A stretch of DNA of 64,000 bases from a virus, in the UHGV virus genome UHGV-0125682, one strand, 5' to 3'. Of the stretch, positions 14,493 through 57,614 are shown piece after piece (position 1 is the stretch's first letter; each line of letters starts with the position of its first letter). The notes beneath the pieces are model-generated. The model was given only the letters and a program-made list of their open reading frames with translations. It made no database searches and was not told the DNA's origin. Both the position numbers and the translations under genes were made by a program.

Positions 14493-14510
14493 AAGTTAAA
14501 TTTCTAACAT
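14493..14510 (-). promoter_or_regulatory. Operator-like motif (AAGTTAAATTTCTAACAT)
   Basis: Instance of recurring 18-bp motif AAATTAGTTTTCTAACAT. Confidence 0.4.
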
Positions 14511-14682: not shown

Positions 14683-15645
14683 GTGAGTATTTTAAATTCA
14701 GTTTCAGTAACTTTCAACACTTCTGAGTATAAAAACAACACTGAATACCACAAAAAAATCAAAGGTCATCAGTTGAGTTTTTTTGCTCGTCATAGCGGTC
14801 TTCTTTCCCCTTCACATAGCGCCATTATTGCCGAGTTCGCCAACCTGGCAGGGTCTACCGATGAATACATGATCCGTCGCTCATATGCTGATATGTCCGA
14901 GATTACAGGACGCAGTATTTCTACTGTGCGCCGGGCATTTGCTGAAGCGACGAAGTGCGGAATGCTTGTTAAGCAACATCAGGTAGCGAATAACAATGCC
15001 CAGGTGTGTAACGTATATCGGTTTACGACACAATTTCTCCACTTCATTCATGTAGCAATGGAGATAGGGGGTAAGCAGGGCATCAAATTTGCCAACGCCA
15101 CAAAACTGGTTAAGCAGTTGATTTCAAAGGTTCGTTATTTTTTTGAAACTGGGAACCCCCTGTTCAAATTGAACAAGTCCCCCCATGTTCAAAATGAACA
15201 GCCAATAGAAAATAAGAGTTACTCTATAGCCAAAAGAAGAGAAAGATCATGCGCGGTTCAGCCAAAGGCTTCACCAGCAGATAGTTCTCAAACGGATAAC
15301 GGTGTACTGGATAAAAAACCAGTAATCAGGGAAGAACATACCAACCACTGCCTGGCGGCGGCAAAAGCGAGAGCTGCAAAGCGTCGTTCAGACGAGGGGC
15401 ACGCAAAACGGCAGGCTCTGTATCGTACCGCTGAAAAGCTGGCAAAAAAATTTGCATGGATACGTAGTGCCGCTACCGCAGTGAATAAGCCTAAACAATC
15501 CAGTGCCCTGGATTTCTCAATGGATTATTCTGGCTCCCAGGGGTGTGCAACCATTGGTGAAGCCTTTGACCTGATGAAACAGCGTGGCTATCGGTCTGAA
15601 TTTGACCGTGAGGATTGGTCAATCCCTGCGGGATTTAGGGGATGA
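14683..15645 (+). CDS. Putative replication initiator, winged-HTH (RepL-like)
   Basis: 320 aa; GTG start uncertain; wHTH-like SEITGRSISTVRRAFAEATKCGMLVK; twin palindromes inside the ORF. Confidence 0.4.
   Translation: MSILNSVSVTFNTSEYKNNTEYHKKIKGHQLSFFARHSGLLSPSHSAIIAEFANLAGSTDEYMIRRSYADMSEITGRSISTVRRAFAEATKCGMLVKQHQVANNNAQVCNVYRFTTQFLHFIHVAMEIGGKQGIKFANATKLVKQLISKVRYFFETGNPLFKLNKSPHVQNEQPIENKSYSIAKRRERSCAVQPKASPADSSQTDNGVLDKKPVIREEHTNHCLAAAKARAAKRRSDEGHAKRQALYRTAEKLAKKFAWIRSAATAVNKPKQSSALDFSMDYSGSQGCATIGEAFDLMKQRGYRSEFDREDWSIPAGFRG
15161..15200. other. Twin 15-bp palindromes inside RepL-like ORF (candidate origin or binding site)
   Basis: TGTTCAAATTGAACA and TGTTCAAAATGAACA, 25 bp apart, each preceded by a C5 run. 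Confidence 0.4.
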
Positions 15646-15698
15646 CCTGTGTGTCTACAAAACATCCCAATGATCGGAAAATGCTCGTTCGATGATTT

Positions 15699-15716
15699 GT
15701 GTTAGAAAATTAATTT
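15699..15716 (+). promoter_or_regulatory. Operator-like motif (GTGTTAGAAAATTAATTT)
   Basis: Recurring motif; upstream of icd/ant module. Confidence 0.45.
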
Positions 15717-16058
15717 GCTGTTTCTAAATCGGAATGTATGATCTGCATCATCGACTGAAGTCATCCATTGCTGAAATTTTTAGTTGATCTTCCATGTTTT
15801 CAGGCTTATATTCATGCCGTCGTAGCAAATTCTGCGACCGGGTTTGACAGCCTGAATACTTACGCGGACAACCGCACATTTCCGATATTGCGGTATTTTT
15901 GTGTCCGTAAAACCACGTTACGCCCGAATTATGGTGGGGCGTGATGGGGAGGCTTCGGCCTGCTGGTTTCGTAAGTGCCAGTCTGTCAACCCTGTCACGT
16001 CCTGCCACCTGTTTGACAGCGGGTCGCAGGTTGTTTATCAACTTACGAGGCCGTAACT

Positions 16059-16283
16059 ATGGTTAATGCCAATCCTTGCTCACGCCCAGAATTCATCTGG
16101 CGTTTCCACTCCCTGCAAAAACACTGCGATCACTTCGCAATTGCCGCAACCGAAAAAGAAGCCCGTTCTCTGATCCCTGATCAGTATGGTGTTCTTACTG
16201 GTCGTTTCTCTACTTCCCCACAACCAAACACTAATCCCTGGTATCGCAATATTACCAATCCCGGAATTGCGGAGGCACACTGA
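16059..16283 (+). CDS. Small protein paralogous to 56458-56673 (Icd-like position upstream of antirepressor)
   Basis: 74 aa; shared motif EFIWRF.S.QKH......AATE.EARS with the second copy; stop overlaps next start. Confidence 0.45.
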   Translation: MVNANPCSRPEFIWRFHSLQKHCDHFAIAATEKEARSLIPDQYGVLTGRFSTSPQPNTNPWYRNITNPGIAEAH

Positions 16284-16990
16284 TGGAAATCTGCATTCTT
16301 GAAAAGCCATCAATGACCAGCATTGAGATCGCGGAGCTGGTGGGAAGTCGTCACTCTGATGTTAAACGCAGCATCGAAAGACTTGTTGCTAAAGGAGTTA
16401 TCCAACATACGCCATTGGCTACAGTTGAGAATAATCAATCACTTAGCCCTAATAAATACACAAAAGCCTATTTCTTCGAAGGCGAGCAAGGCAAGCGCGA
16501 TAGTATTGTCGTCGTCGCGCAGCTCTCTCCCGAATTCACCGCCCGGCTGGTGGACCGCTGGCGCGAACTGGAAGAACAAGTACGCCAGCCGTTGACCGAA
16601 ATAGAGATGATCGCCGCAATGGCTGCAAATGCAGTTCAGCAGCAAAAGCGGCTTCATGTTGTTGAGTCAAAGGTTAGTCAGGTGGTAGAAACCGTCGAGC
16701 AAATCAAGAAGGGCAACATGCCAGATGGTTACATTGGCTACCGCCAGCTGGCTGCGAAATGTGGACTGACCGAAGCCAAATGCCGCAACCTGGTTAATGC
16801 TTACCGGATTCCCACCGATACACATGAGTTTTTAACTCCAGAGGGGGTATTGTCGCGTCGTTCCATCGTGGCCTTATCTCCCTTCATGAATGCTTTTAAC
16901 CGGATGATGTCGGAGGCTGAACACCGAGGAAAACGCTGGTATCACCCCAAAATGGGGCAATTCCAGGTGATCGGTTGGGGAGGTGAGTGA
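16283..16990 (+). CDS. Rha-family phage regulatory protein / antirepressor (Ant-like), lacking C-terminal domain
   Basis: MTSIEIAELVG.RH..VKR... Rha-type N-terminus; ~75% identical to 56673-57614 but stops early. Confidence 0.7.
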   Translation: MEICILEKPSMTSIEIAELVGSRHSDVKRSIERLVAKGVIQHTPLATVENNQSLSPNKYTKAYFFEGEQGKRDSIVVVAQLSPEFTARLVDRWRELEEQVRQPLTEIEMIAAMAANAVQQQKRLHVVESKVSQVVETVEQIKKGNMPDGYIGYRQLAAKCGLTEAKCRNLVNAYRIPTDTHEFLTPEGVLSRRSIVALSPFMNAFNRMMSEAEHRGKRWYHPKMGQFQVIGWGGE

Positions 16991-17187
16991 TGGACATCAT
17001 GCAGGCGGTAAAAAAAATCAGGGAAGGACAGGCTGAAGTGTGCCGCCGTAAAGCATGGAGTGTTGGTGTATGGGCCTGGCCTGATAATTACTCTACTACC
17101 GGATGGTTTTGTATTAATGGACTCCAGATCCGGGAAGTTGATTTATCGACGGCTGATATAGTCGGTAATGATTGGATCGTGACTTGA
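16987..17187 (+). CDS. Separate ORF matching the C-terminal domain of the intact antirepressor paralogue
   Basis: 66 aa ...CRRKAW.VGVWAWP... matches C-terminus of 56673-57614; different frame from 16283-16990. Confidence 0.4.
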   Translation: MMDIMQAVKKIREGQAEVCRRKAWSVGVWAWPDNYSTTGWFCINGLQIREVDLSTADIVGNDWIVT

Positions 17188-17195
17188 AGCGTGAT

Positions 17196-17220
17196 GCCCC
17201 GGCCTGGCCGGGGCTTTTTT
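17196..17220 (+). terminator. Rho-independent terminator
   Basis: GCCCCGGCC / GGCCGGGGC stem followed by TTTTTT. Confidence 0.7.
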
Positions 17221-17705
17221 CATGCCTCATTAGTTGAGGTTGCTGCGTCTCCGACTGGTAACAGAGCGGTATTGCGTGGTTCGCCAGCAGGCCAGCGATA
17301 GCCAGACACTCTTGATGTTGGGAATGCACGAATATTAACCGCATCCCCCTGGTTCCCACCCAGGACAAGCAGATCGCCATTGGCGCGGCGTCCGACAACG
17401 AAGCCTACGTGCCCACCGCCTACGCGGGTAAATACAACGATACATCCGTATGCCGGTGTATCTAATTTCTCGCCCCAATCCAGATAGGATTTTGCCGACT
17501 CAAATCTTGTTGAGCGGATGCCTACACGTTCCAGCATTGCACCGACAAATGCTGCGCACCACGGCGTTTCATCGTCTTTAATTCCGCCGCGCTTGATGTC
17601 GCGCCAGAACTGAACGATTTCAGGGTTGTGTTTAGCGCCTTTTATTTCAGTCAGGCCAATGTGCTTACGGGCTTCAATTAGCCAGCGAGGTTCAATGTTT
17701 GCCAT
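17220..17705 (-). CDS. Putative peptidoglycan hydrolase (CHAP / NlpC-P60-like)
   Basis: 161 aa; ...TPWCAAFV... and ...GGHVGFVVG... resemble Cys/His hydrolase motifs; not a T4-type lysozyme. Confidence 0.45.
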   Translation of the reverse strand: MANIEPRWLIEARKHIGLTEIKGAKHNPEIVQFWRDIKRGGIKDDETPWCAAFVGAMLERVGIRSTRFESAKSYLDWGEKLDTPAYGCIVVFTRVGGGHVGFVVGRRANGDLLVLGGNQGDAVNIRAFPTSRVSGYRWPAGEPRNTALLPVGDAATSTNEA

Positions 17706-29124: not shown

Positions 29125-29201
29125 GATGGTGTAGCTCAGTAGGATAGAGCAGCAGCCTTCTAAGCTGTCGGTCGGTGGTTCGAATCCACCCACCATCGCC
29201 A
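29125..29201 (+). tRNA. tRNA-Arg (anticodon TCT)
   Basis: Cloverleaf folded by hand: acceptor GATGGTG/CACCATC, D-arm GCTC..GAGC, anticodon loop CTTCTAA, T-loop TTCGAAT, 3' GCCA. Confidence 0.85.
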
Positions 29202-29203
29202 AT

Positions 29204-29279
29204 GCCGGTTTAGCTCAGTTGGTAGAGCGCCTGCCTTGTAAGCAGGATGTCAGCGGTTCGAGTCCGTTAACCGGCACCA
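29204..29279 (+). tRNA. tRNA-Thr (anticodon TGT)
   Basis: Acceptor GCCGGTT/AACCGGC, D-loop AGTTGGTA, anticodon loop CTTGTAA, T-loop TTCGAGT, 3' ACCA. Confidence 0.85.
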
Positions 29280-31116: not shown

Positions 31117-31192
31117 GGCCCTTTAGCTCAGTGGTTAGAGCTGGCGACTCATAATCGCACGGTCACCGGTTCAAGTCCGGTAGGGGCCACCA
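31117..31192 (+). tRNA. tRNA with CAT anticodon (Met or lysidine-modified Ile2)
   Basis: Acceptor GGCCCTT/AGGGGCC, D-loop AGTGGTTA, anticodon loop CTCATAA, T-loop TTCAAGT, 3' ACCA. Confidence 0.85.
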
Positions 31193-37060: not shown

Positions 37061-37078
37061 GATTTAGTTTTCTAACAT
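37061..37078 (-). promoter_or_regulatory. Operator-like motif (GATTTAGTTTTCTAACAT)
   Basis: Recurring motif immediately upstream of putative repressor gene. Confidence 0.45.
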
Positions 37079-54989: not shown

Positions 54990-55006
54990 TGTTAGAAAAT
55001 CAATTT
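54990..55006 (+). promoter_or_regulatory. Operator-like motif (TGTTAGAAAATCAATTT)
   Basis: Between the leftward operon and ref-like gene. Confidence 0.45.
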
Positions 55007-56147: not shown

Positions 56148-56457
56148 CACTGACTGTTGCGCCCTGGCATTATCGTGGGGTATATTTCTACGGCACCTTA
56201 GAAAAACGGGTGCCGGGATTGGAACCCCGGATAATGCAAAAGGCGACACAGACGCCGAAAGCGTCTTTTTTTGTGTCATGCCATCGCACAGCCATACGTA
56301 GCGTTTAGCTCAGAGATCAATGGTAGTGCTGGCTGGGCTGCCGAAAGGCAGGCCGGTTCCCTTTTGCGCCGGTAGTTCCAACCCAGTCAGTGCTACCGCC
56401 ATTGAGATTGGAACCTCACGCGGTAGCTCCTTAAATTAGCAAAAGGAGGCTGCCAAT

Positions 56458-56673
56458 ATGGCTACTATCCCTACCCCAACTCATTCTGAATTTATCTGGC
56501 GTTTCTATTCCTGCCAAAAACACCTGTATATCTGCGTCATGGCTGCTACCGAAGCAGAAGCTCGTTCATACCTTCCTGAAGAACCCTGCATTTTTGCCGC
56601 ACGCTTCACTCTTGATGCGATGGAGATCCTAAATTACTGGAATCTGCCAATGAACTGCGTGGAGGTGCACTGA
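56458..56673 (+). CDS. Small protein paralogous to 16059-16283 (Icd-like position)
   Basis: 71 aa; RBS AAAGGAGG; stop overlaps next start. Confidence 0.45.
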   Translation: MATIPTPTHSEFIWRFYSCQKHLYICVMAATEAEARSYLPEEPCIFAARFTLDAMEILNYWNLPMNCVEVH

Positions 56674-57614
56674 TGAATCTGTCCATCTCTCAAAAAGCGA
56701 CAATGACCAGTATTGAGATCGCGGAACTGGTAGGTAAGCGTCATGATAATGTGAAGCGTACCATTGAAGTATTAACTAAAGGTGGTGTCATTCAATTTCC
56801 TCAAATTGAGGAAATTGAAAATAAACAATCAGTTGGCCCTCGTCGATTTTCCAAGGCTTACATATTTGAAGGCGAACAAGGAAAACGAGACAGCATCATT
56901 GTCGTCGCGCAGCTCTCTCCGGAATTCACCGCCCGGCTGGTGGACCGCTGGCGCGAACTGGAGAATGCCCGGGTACAGTTAAAATCAAAAGCCGAAATTC
57001 TGGCTGAAATGGCGCAAATGCATCTTGAGCATGAACGCCGGATCAACGCCGTAAATGCCCAGGTAGCCGAGGTATCAGCACAAGTATCGATGGTCGCTGA
57101 AACACTCGAGCAAATAAAGAAAGGCAATATTCCGGAAGGCTACATTGGCTACCGCCAGCTGGCGGCGAAATGTGGCCTGACTGAAGCCAAATGTCGCAAC
57201 CTGGTTAACGCTTTCCGGATTCCCACCGATACGCATGAGTTTTTAACTCCAGATGGTTTGCTTGCGCGACGCTCCATTGTGGCCCTGGTCCCCTTCCGGA
57301 AAGCCTTTAAGCAGGTGATGTCGGAGGCAGAACCACGCAATAAACGCTGGTATCATCCAAAGATGGGGATGTTTCAGGCAATCCACCATCCTGTGCCTGA
57401 AAGCCCAAAGGATAATCTGTCACTACATACCGTCAGAGAGAAGATCAGGACTGGATACGCAACAGTGTGTCGTCGTTCTTCCTGGCCTGAAGGTATATGG
57501 GTGTGGCCCGAAGGTGGATCACGAAAGCACTGTCGCACCATCCGTGACGGGAAAATCCATGCTATTGATTTAGCTCCAGAGGATGTTATTGCTATGGACT
57601 GGATTGTTAGTTAA
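56673..57614 (+). CDS. Rha-family phage regulatory protein / antirepressor (Ant-like), full length
   Basis: 313 aa; MTSIEIAELVGKRHDNVKR...; C-terminal domain present. Confidence 0.7.
   Translation: MNLSISQKATMTSIEIAELVGKRHDNVKRTIEVLTKGGVIQFPQIEEIENKQSVGPRRFSKAYIFEGEQGKRDSIIVVAQLSPEFTARLVDRWRELENARVQLKSKAEILAEMAQMHLEHERRINAVNAQVAEVSAQVSMVAETLEQIKKGNIPEGYIGYRQLAAKCGLTEAKCRNLVNAFRIPTDTHEFLTPDGLLARRSIVALVPFRKAFKQVMSEAEPRNKRWYHPKMGMFQAIHHPVPESPKDNLSLHTVREKIRTGYATVCRRSSWPEGIWVWPEGGSRKHCRTIRDGKIHAIDLAPEDVIAMDWIVS

Follow-up and report, generated by a model that had tools for sequence, protein, structure and literature searches.

A probable intact P1 immI-type operon with a coupled Tad2-like gene in a D6-like phage-plasmid

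Introduction

The UHGV virus genome UHGV-0125682, analysed here as one strand of 64,000 nucleotides (nt; this whole stretch is termed the window), carries at 15700-17224 a region that is, with a probability of about 0.82, one intact immunity operon of the P1 immI type, in which the apparent break in the putative antirepressor gene is a fixed two-gene arrangement. The operon (module 1) comprises a leader with the C4 antisense RNA and its targets, followed by icd, the Rha/Roi-type gene ant with a product of 235 amino acids (aa; Ant235), and orf65, a small gene whose modelled product adopts the fold of the phage protein Tad2. A paralogous module 2 lies at 56193-57614 and encodes a 313-aa antirepressor-like protein (Ant313) in which the counterparts of Ant235 and Orf65 are fused. 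Judged by its sequence, the window is a D6-like phage-plasmid. It shares about 96% identity with Escherichia phage D6, itself a P1-like plasmid prophage, and the region 15400-17400 has 96% nucleotide identity to that phage. Such elements are common in E. coli and Salmonella, about 110 of whose plasmid records cover at least 80% of the module.

D6 already has annotation for the module, and two ImmI-like regions with c4 and icd have been reported for D6-like Salmonella plasmids (PMC6799933). What is new here is the Tad2-like identity of orf65, the pairing of a split arrangement with a fused one in two paralogous Ants, the allele of the C4 b sites and the candidate operator. On the reading preferred here, a suspected pseudogene or recoding site is removed from the annotation and the P1-type immunity operon becomes fully intact. 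The present analysis shows which parts exist, how they are ordered, which of them are complementary and how far they are conserved; the mechanism of C4 and C1 is carried over from the established work on P1 and P7.

The leader: C4 antisense RNA, candidate operator and promoters

The 413-bp leader contains a complete C4 apparatus. An earlier sequence-only reading of the window had suggested that the leader could encode a c4-type antisense RNA, and this suggestion is fully supported, as a covariance search places both the C4 RNA (RF01695) and the upstream leader element with its target sites (RF03163) above their gathering scores (Table 1). The predicted C4 fold (-42.8 kcal/mol, z = -5.16) presents the segment b' (TCGTAAGT, 15969-15976) in a hairpin loop and the segment a' (CTGTCAA, 15983-15989) as single-stranded, and the sequence is nearly identical to that of P1 c4 except in the b' loop. 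Pairing partners occur twice for each segment: TTGACAG at two sites for a', and ACTTACG(A) at two sites for b', the site b2 matching the b' loop in perfect complementarity over 8 nt. A 97-aa open reading frame (ORF) on the minus strand (15748-16041) overlaps c4 and the c4 leader.

The targets and the RNA vary together. Loci of the module-1 type were compared (L001, L004-L006 and L013-L028), with the plasmid pSa1423-90k (L003) excluded as an indel-ridden assembly. Across 22 module-1-type sequences together with P1 and P7, a1 is always equal to a2 and to the reverse complement of a', and b1 is always equal to b2 and to the reverse complement of b'. In this set the a site has two alleles and the b site four, which occur in six combinations; at module-1-type loci the a site is TTGACAG or TTAGCAG and the b site GTTAGTG, GATTGTG, ACTTACG or ACGAATG. 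The window and D6 have the b allele ACTTACG, as against GTTAGTG in P1 and GATTGTG in P7, with b', b1 and b2 changed together; some D6-like elements have the exact a/b pair of P1, and others combine P1 and P7 sites. As the a and b sites covary across sequences, the comparison argues strongly for a functional C4 RNA with functional targets. Such combinatorial alleles constitute a natural set of orthogonal antisense regulators, which bears on the heteroimmunity of co-resident P1-like and D6-like plasmids.

Operator-like motifs had also been noted in the leader, and this claim survives in an altered form. The consensus of the P1 C1 operator (ATTGCTNNAATNNNTTT) is not enriched in the window (10 matches found, 11.9 expected) and was dropped in favour of a different, 17-bp motif, TGTTAGAAAAYTAATTT, which was discovered through k-mer counts from the leader. 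The latter occurs at 11 sites in the window against 0.41 expected, a count reached by 0 of 100 shuffles; the sites start at 14493, 15700, 26644, 27893, 32627, 37061, 38471, 49763, 49776, 54990 and 55640. Apart from the copy in the leader, copies lie upstream of repL (14493-14509), of c1 (37061-37077; the position of c1 was mapped via synteny with D6) and of ref (54990-55006), and in P1 the C1 operators occupy the same places (repL, c4, c1 and ref). From its sequence and placement, the motif is probably the candidate C1 operator set of D6-like phages, distinct from the P1 consensus.

Two promoters can be proposed downstream of the operator start. The one that aligns to P1c4 (formerly P51b) was returned by the promoter scan, while the weak upstream candidate at 15715-15742 was picked by eye and scored under the threshold of that scan. 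Its geometry resembles that of Oc4/P2c4 in P1, where the end of the operator overlaps the -35 element, and it is put forward, from its sequence and this likeness, as a conjectural promoter.

By analogy with P1 and P7, C4 would be cut from the leader transcript, its a' and b' loops would pair with a2 and b2, and this pairing would block the translation of icd and hence the transcription and translation of everything downstream, while C1 would lower transcription from the upstream promoter. Transcripts outrunning C4, during infection or derepression, would yield Icd, Ant and Orf65 together; orf65, with its translation coupled to that of ant, should be expressed in every situation that yields Ant.

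The icd and ant genes

The overlap of a small Icd-like ORF with a Rha-type gene, described in the sequence-only reading, is present. With P1 Icd, the Icd product shares 61% identity (E 8e-27), and it matches NCBIfam NF033153 with 40 bits against a cut-off of 25. A ribosome-binding site GGAGG (16271-16275) precedes the stop/start overlap TGATG (16281-16285), from which the coupling of icd translation to that of the next gene may be read.

The N-terminal Rha winged-helix domain is found in Ant235, as Pfam Phage_pRha (PF09669) scores 33.4 bits against a cut-off of 29.9 (37.3 bits for Ant313). The protein matches phrog_63 'anti-repressor Ant' (E 2e-46) and is labelled 'putative anti-repressor similar to HK97 Roi' in D6 (orf18). 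It also aligns to the 264-position anti-repressor profile phrog_1726 up to position 263; since this profile is matched to its penultimate position, Ant is, as judged by alignment, complete at 235 aa and free of detectable truncation.

The N-terminal winged-helix segment is itself variable. Window positions 16346-16471 (Ant residues ~22-63) form a hypervariable cassette, for which D6-like elements that are otherwise near-identical (L013-L047) have at least six alleles. The module-1 allele of the window is the module-2 allele of contigs L044-L046, which indicates that the cassette is exchanged between the two paralogous ant genes.

Identity and possible role of Orf65

The 66-aa ORF previously placed at 16987-17187 exists, but its start is better set at ATG 16990, giving 65 aa, than at GTG 16987, because the GGAGG lies 6 nt from the former and only 3 nt from the latter. 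The ORF lies in the -1 frame relative to ant, and its product shares 41% identity with residues 256-313 of Ant313 (E 3e-16), the intact paralogue at 56673-57614 to which the sequence-only reading had rightly pointed. The ORF had been taken for the C-terminal domain of the antirepressor; the homology stands, whereas the notion of a mere Ant domain gives way to that of an autonomous Tad2-like protein which is free-standing elsewhere.

The gene product matches phrog_7385, a family of free-standing 65-aa proteins, end to end (E 2e-49), and its protein cluster has 165 member sequences. The AF2 model has a predicted local distance difference test score (pLDDT) of 93, and in a Foldseek search of the PDB the top 16 matches are all Tad2 (probability 0.99-1.00, TM score 0.72-0.78), the next falling below 0.3; matches in BFVD are DUF2829/Tad2-like phage proteins, several of them of 60-66 aa. 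The alignment to the Pfam family Tad2-like (PF11195) spans positions 1-72 of the 73-position model; 4 of 5 members of the Orf65 family match PF11195 (best E 3.6e-9), and the member P0008 has PF11195 in its precomputed annotation. A sequence search of the PDB gave weak matches to AcrIIA7/HgmTad2 only; it is the fold, together with the Pfam matches of family members, that connects Orf65 to Tad2.

Relatives are few in sequence space. When 1.84 billion representatives were searched exhaustively with a profile, 8 were found, one of them a spurious repeat protein; the relatives comprise the 313-aa fusion and proteins of 68-96 aa that stand alone. Word-indexed homology searches with Orf65 and P0008 returned almost nothing, and of 50,697 phage records, D6 was the only one that tblastn with Orf65 recovered. 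In other phage-plasmid contigs, ~90 kb in size, two distant homologues exist as separate genes with no ant gene beside them, and since such free-standing homologues occur away from ant, orf65 is, on the modelled fold, an autonomous module of the Tad2/DUF2829 type. This is the first structural assignment for D6 orf17, which is 'hypothetical' in D6 and in the plasmid records examined. In L010-L012, the free-standing Tad2-like homologues (68 and 96 aa) stand among small accessory genes between the capsid region and genes of the upfB/StbA type, and an intergenic gap of ~320 nt precedes each homologue.

The SPO1 Tad2 protein sequesters 1''-3' gcADPR, chiefly via W25, N26, W73 and D79, and Tad2 proteins are oligomers (bioRxiv 10.1101/2023.05.01.538930). 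The SPO1 residues were mapped onto Orf65 by sequence, via the HgmTad2/AcrIIA7 alignment and not by superposed structures; the counterparts of W25 and D79 are thereby W23 and D56, neither of which varies within the Orf65 family. Orf65 might well be a small-ligand-binding, sponge-like protein of the anti-defence type, delivered at the earliest stage of infection, at somewhat less than even odds and by analogy with Tad2.

Several observations weigh against an immI-type operon with an independent, sponge-like Orf65. Ant235 has no detectable similarity to P1 Ant1 (BLASTP E 0.36), owing to which its antirepressor role is proposed from position and family annotation, and the binding of C1 to the 17-bp motif is likewise proposed, from sequence and placement. 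Orf65 itself falls under the PF11195 cut-off (15.2 against 25 bits, E 0.03). The test of selection on orf65, which is highly conserved within the D6 group, had too few substitutions among close relatives to be informative, with a ratio of nonsynonymous to synonymous polymorphism (pN/pS) of 0.46 in one comparison, and 4 nonsynonymous against 0 synonymous changes in a second. In the same sequence mapping, two of the four main SPO1 ligand contacts are lost, N26 being replaced by S/P and W73 by V/I/Y/F, and because these equivalents are replaced, the ligand of Orf65, if any, may differ from that of Tad2. The model also lacks the long Tad2 loops, which makes a sponge function uncertain. Lastly, the conserved fusion in module 2 suggests a functional tie of orf65 to Ant rather than full independence.

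This tie is the core of the alternative that survives best, according to which Orf65 is a detachable subunit or oligomerisation module of Ant, binding Ant235 or mediating oligomerisation or C1 binding and thus doing in trans what Ant313 has in cis. We regard it tentatively, at around one chance in three. Hundreds of contigs have this domain fused to the paralogous Ant, phrog_63 includes it, and the tight translational coupling suggests matched amounts of the two products. The lost ligand contacts would fit such a role, as would the oligomeric state of Tad2 proteins, by which the fold could serve oligomerisation; moreover, P1 Ant acts as an Ant1/Ant2/C1 complex (annotation of the P1 record), so that two proteins are needed there. 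Against it stand the distant free-standing homologues far from any ant gene and the fact that Ant235-type proteins devoid of the domain form a family of their own, phrog_1726. The AF2 model of Ant313 is uninformative in this respect: its predicted template modelling score (pTM) is 0.31, its C-terminus has a pLDDT below 50, the linker and domain are of low confidence and no docking is seen. The remainder of the probability falls to roles other than a sponge-like protein or an Ant subunit.

A further proposal, which we consider unlikely, would make the Tad2-like module a small-ligand sensor on the lysis-lysogeny switch, tethered to Ant in module 2 and present as a coupled, separate subunit in module 1. 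A host immune messenger of the gcADPR/ADPR type, or another nucleotide, would then modulate Ant, so that the prophage would sense abortive-infection signalling and escape. In a weaker version, the immI operon may double as the earliest-expressed anti-Thoeris locus. If Orf65 binds a signalling nucleotide, immunity control and anti-defence would be linked.

The split between ant and orf65

The antirepressor stops at 235 aa and its C-terminal match continues in a different frame, as the sequence-only reading had it; for this split a frameshift pseudogene, programmed frameshifting and a two-protein arrangement had all been considered, and it is the last that is supported. The TGA stop of ant (16988-16990) shares its A with the ATG of orf65 behind a well-placed ribosome-binding site, a design that copies the icd/ant junction (GGAGG, then TGATG), and Ant235 is complete against phrog_1726. 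The junction GGAGG(T/C)GAGTGATGG is kept in 22 of 22 related sequences, D6 included; it is the same base for base in D6 and is kept in three good plasmid assemblies (90-94% nucleotide identity) and in 16 of 16 IMG/VR contigs, the sole variation being T or C within GGAGG(T/C)GAG. The strong intrinsic terminator sits after orf65 and not after ant. No fused orthologue of module 1 was found in the protein cluster, the profile search or the IMG/VR contigs.

It is very improbable that the split reflects a sequencing error or a frameshift pseudogene, that is, a once-fused antirepressor of ~300 aa broken by an indel, with the 66-aa ORF as its dead remnant. Such damage would explain the homology of the small ORF to the C-terminus of the intact paralogue; genuine frameshifts do occur in the paralogue of some contigs, and selection on orf65 is not demonstrable. 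However, the same junction recurs throughout the 22 sequences, the viable phage D6 among them, and includes a GGAGG at a suitable distance from an ATG that overlaps the stop. No stop codon has been gained in orf65 despite up to 11 substitutions, the product models as a complete domain, and the terminator is placed beyond it. The corresponding linker of the paralogue is 17 nt longer and diverged in sequence, and therefore no single-base change or indel joins the frames; an error that restores one reading frame was not found.

The real frameshifts of module 2 offer a contrast. The gene for Ant313 is frameshifted in L042 and L044-L046 (~nt 616) and in L043, by an extra C in a C-run or by a 2-nt deletion; these lesions are sporadic, mostly in homopolymers, and are either pseudogenes or sequencing errors. 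As real frameshifts are sporadic, the fixed module-1 split is unlike damage. Within orf65, one of the 16 IMG/VR contigs (L027) has a 1-nt indel in the A-run; an A8 run lies at window positions 17010-17017, where this contig and the database protein P0003 look like indel variants.

Least credible of all is programmed -1 frameshifting or stop-codon bypass yielding a fused Ant-Tad2 protein beside the 235-aa Ant. In its favour, the second ORF is in the -1 frame, overlapping ant at its end, and this frame is open for 22 codons upstream in four variants (L024-L026 and L028). In the window, however, the frame is closed by TGA at 16984-16986, just before the ant stop, which leaves ribosomes no overlap for slippage. 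No heptamer of the slippery form X XXY YYZ is found near the junction before the ant stop, read-through of that stop reaches TAA after six codons, and the junction is equipped with a separate ribosome-binding site and ATG.

Layout of the operon and its surroundings

The features of the operon are collected in Table 1. In D6 (MF356679/NC_050154) the same genes are called, namely repL, icd (orf19), ant (orf18, 235 aa) and a 65-aa hypothetical (orf17), and downstream of orf17 lie a convergent peptidoglycan hydrolase gene and then darB. Elsewhere in the window, three tRNA genes (Rfam) at 29125-29276 and 31117-31189 match the tRNA cluster of D6.

Table 1. Coordinates of operon features in the window, with the evidence for each
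Feature	Position	Strand	Evidence
Candidate C1 operator, D6 type (TGTTAGAAAATTAATTT)	15700-15716	+	Perfect copy of the enriched 17-bp motif
Weak candidate upstream promoter (TTGCTG, 16-nt spacer, TATGAT)	15715-15742	+	By eye; overlaps operator end
P1c4-type promoter (TTGATC, 17-nt spacer, TATATT)	15784-15812	+	Promoter scan; aligns to annotated P1 P1c4
Leader element with upstream C4 target sites a1 and b1	15806-15858	+	Rfam RF03163 c4-a1b1, 55.9 bits (gathering score 46.7)
a1 (TTGACAG)	15844-15850	+	P1 alignment
b1 (ACTTACG)	15858-15864	+	Starts at the final base of the RF03163 match and extends just beyond
C4 antisense RNA gene	15927-16012 (mature-like core 15933-16009)	+	Rfam RF01695, 69.6 bits (gathering score 45)
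a2 target (TTGACAG)	16013-16019	+	Complement of a'; aligns to annotated P1 a2
b2 target (ACTTACGA)	16041-16048	+	Adjoins icd ribosome-binding site GAGG; aligns to annotated P1 b2
icd, 74 aa, Icd-like cell-division inhibitor	16059-16283	+	P1 Icd, NF033153, phrog_1426; D6 icd
ant, 235 aa, Rha/Roi-type putative antirepressor	16283-16990	+	Start overlaps icd stop; D6 orf18
Coupling junction: GGAGG (16979-16983), 6 nt, ATG overlapping ant TGA (TGATG)	16979-16992	+	By eye
orf65, 65 aa, Tad2-like (DUF2829) fold	16990-17187	+	phrog_7385, AF2, Foldseek; D6 orf17
Intrinsic terminator closing the operon	17196-17224	+	8-bp all-G+C stem, then T run; 9 nt past orf65 stop

The second icd/ant module

Module 2 corresponds to orf83-orf82 of D6, the second icd/ant pair of that phage, and has its own C4 RNA (76.7 bits, 56316-56403), an Icd and the Rha-type Ant313. 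Ant235 is 65% identical to residues 1-237 of Ant313, in which the Tad2-like domain is fused via a linker of ~18 residues, unlike the separate Orf65 of module 1; this fused form is kept in hundreds of contigs. The a and b sites of module 2 (TTGGAAC and GCAAAAGG) both differ from those of module 1, for which reason the two C4 RNAs should not cross-regulate. An Rfam match to 'isrK Hfq binding RNA' (62.5 bits, 56193-56271) is the a1/b1 leader of the second C4: within it, TTGGAAC and GCAAAAGG complement the loops of that RNA, and they recur at ~56408 and 56439-56446, beside the second icd start. The two modules together place a Tad2-like module within an antisense-RNA-gated operon that would be among the first transcribed on infection, as an Ant fusion in one of the paralogues and as a coupled gene in the other.

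Comparison with known systems

The closest relative is D6, with 96% nucleotide identity over the module, an identical junction, an identical orf65 and agreeing gene calls. The two differ in the hypervariable N-terminal cassette of Ant, for which the window has another allele, and the D6 record leaves the C4 RNA, the operator and the function of orf17 unannotated.

With Tad2 (SPO1 Tad2 and Myroides ModTad2), Orf65 shares a helix at the N-terminus with an antiparallel sheet after it, as well as the motif R-x-x-W and the C-terminal D...DW-I-V; both are small phage proteins, and Orf65 would be made early. Orf65 is nevertheless shorter (65 against 89 aa) and devoid of the extended loops and short helices that help to build the Tad2 tetramer and pocket. 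It is also coupled or fused to an antirepressor, unlike Tad2, for which alone a ligand and anti-Thoeris activity are known.

The order of elements in the P1/P7 immI region (Oc4, P2c4/P1c4, a1, b1, c4, a2, b2, icd and ant1/ant2) is the same as in the window, and the leader and c4 of P1-group records have 87-92% nucleotide identity to it. In both, the ribosome-binding site of icd is where b2 lies, the icd stop codon overlaps the next start, and an operator, a candidate one in the window, sits just upstream of the promoters. Among the hallmarks of immI, the C4 RNA, the paired a/b sites and an icd with an overlapping next gene are all found, while a homologue of P1 Ant1/Ant2 is not (E 0.36): the ant position holds a Rha/Roi-type protein in place of Ant1/Ant2, and the region would thus function like immI with an effector that is not an orthologue. 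The b-site specificity differs from those of P1 and P7, as does the candidate operator 17-mer. The operon lies downstream of repL, whereas P1 immI lies upstream of kilA-repL; it includes orf65 as a third coupled cistron, which P1 immI lacks, and, unlike P1 immI, it is accompanied in the same genome by a second, orthogonal copy.

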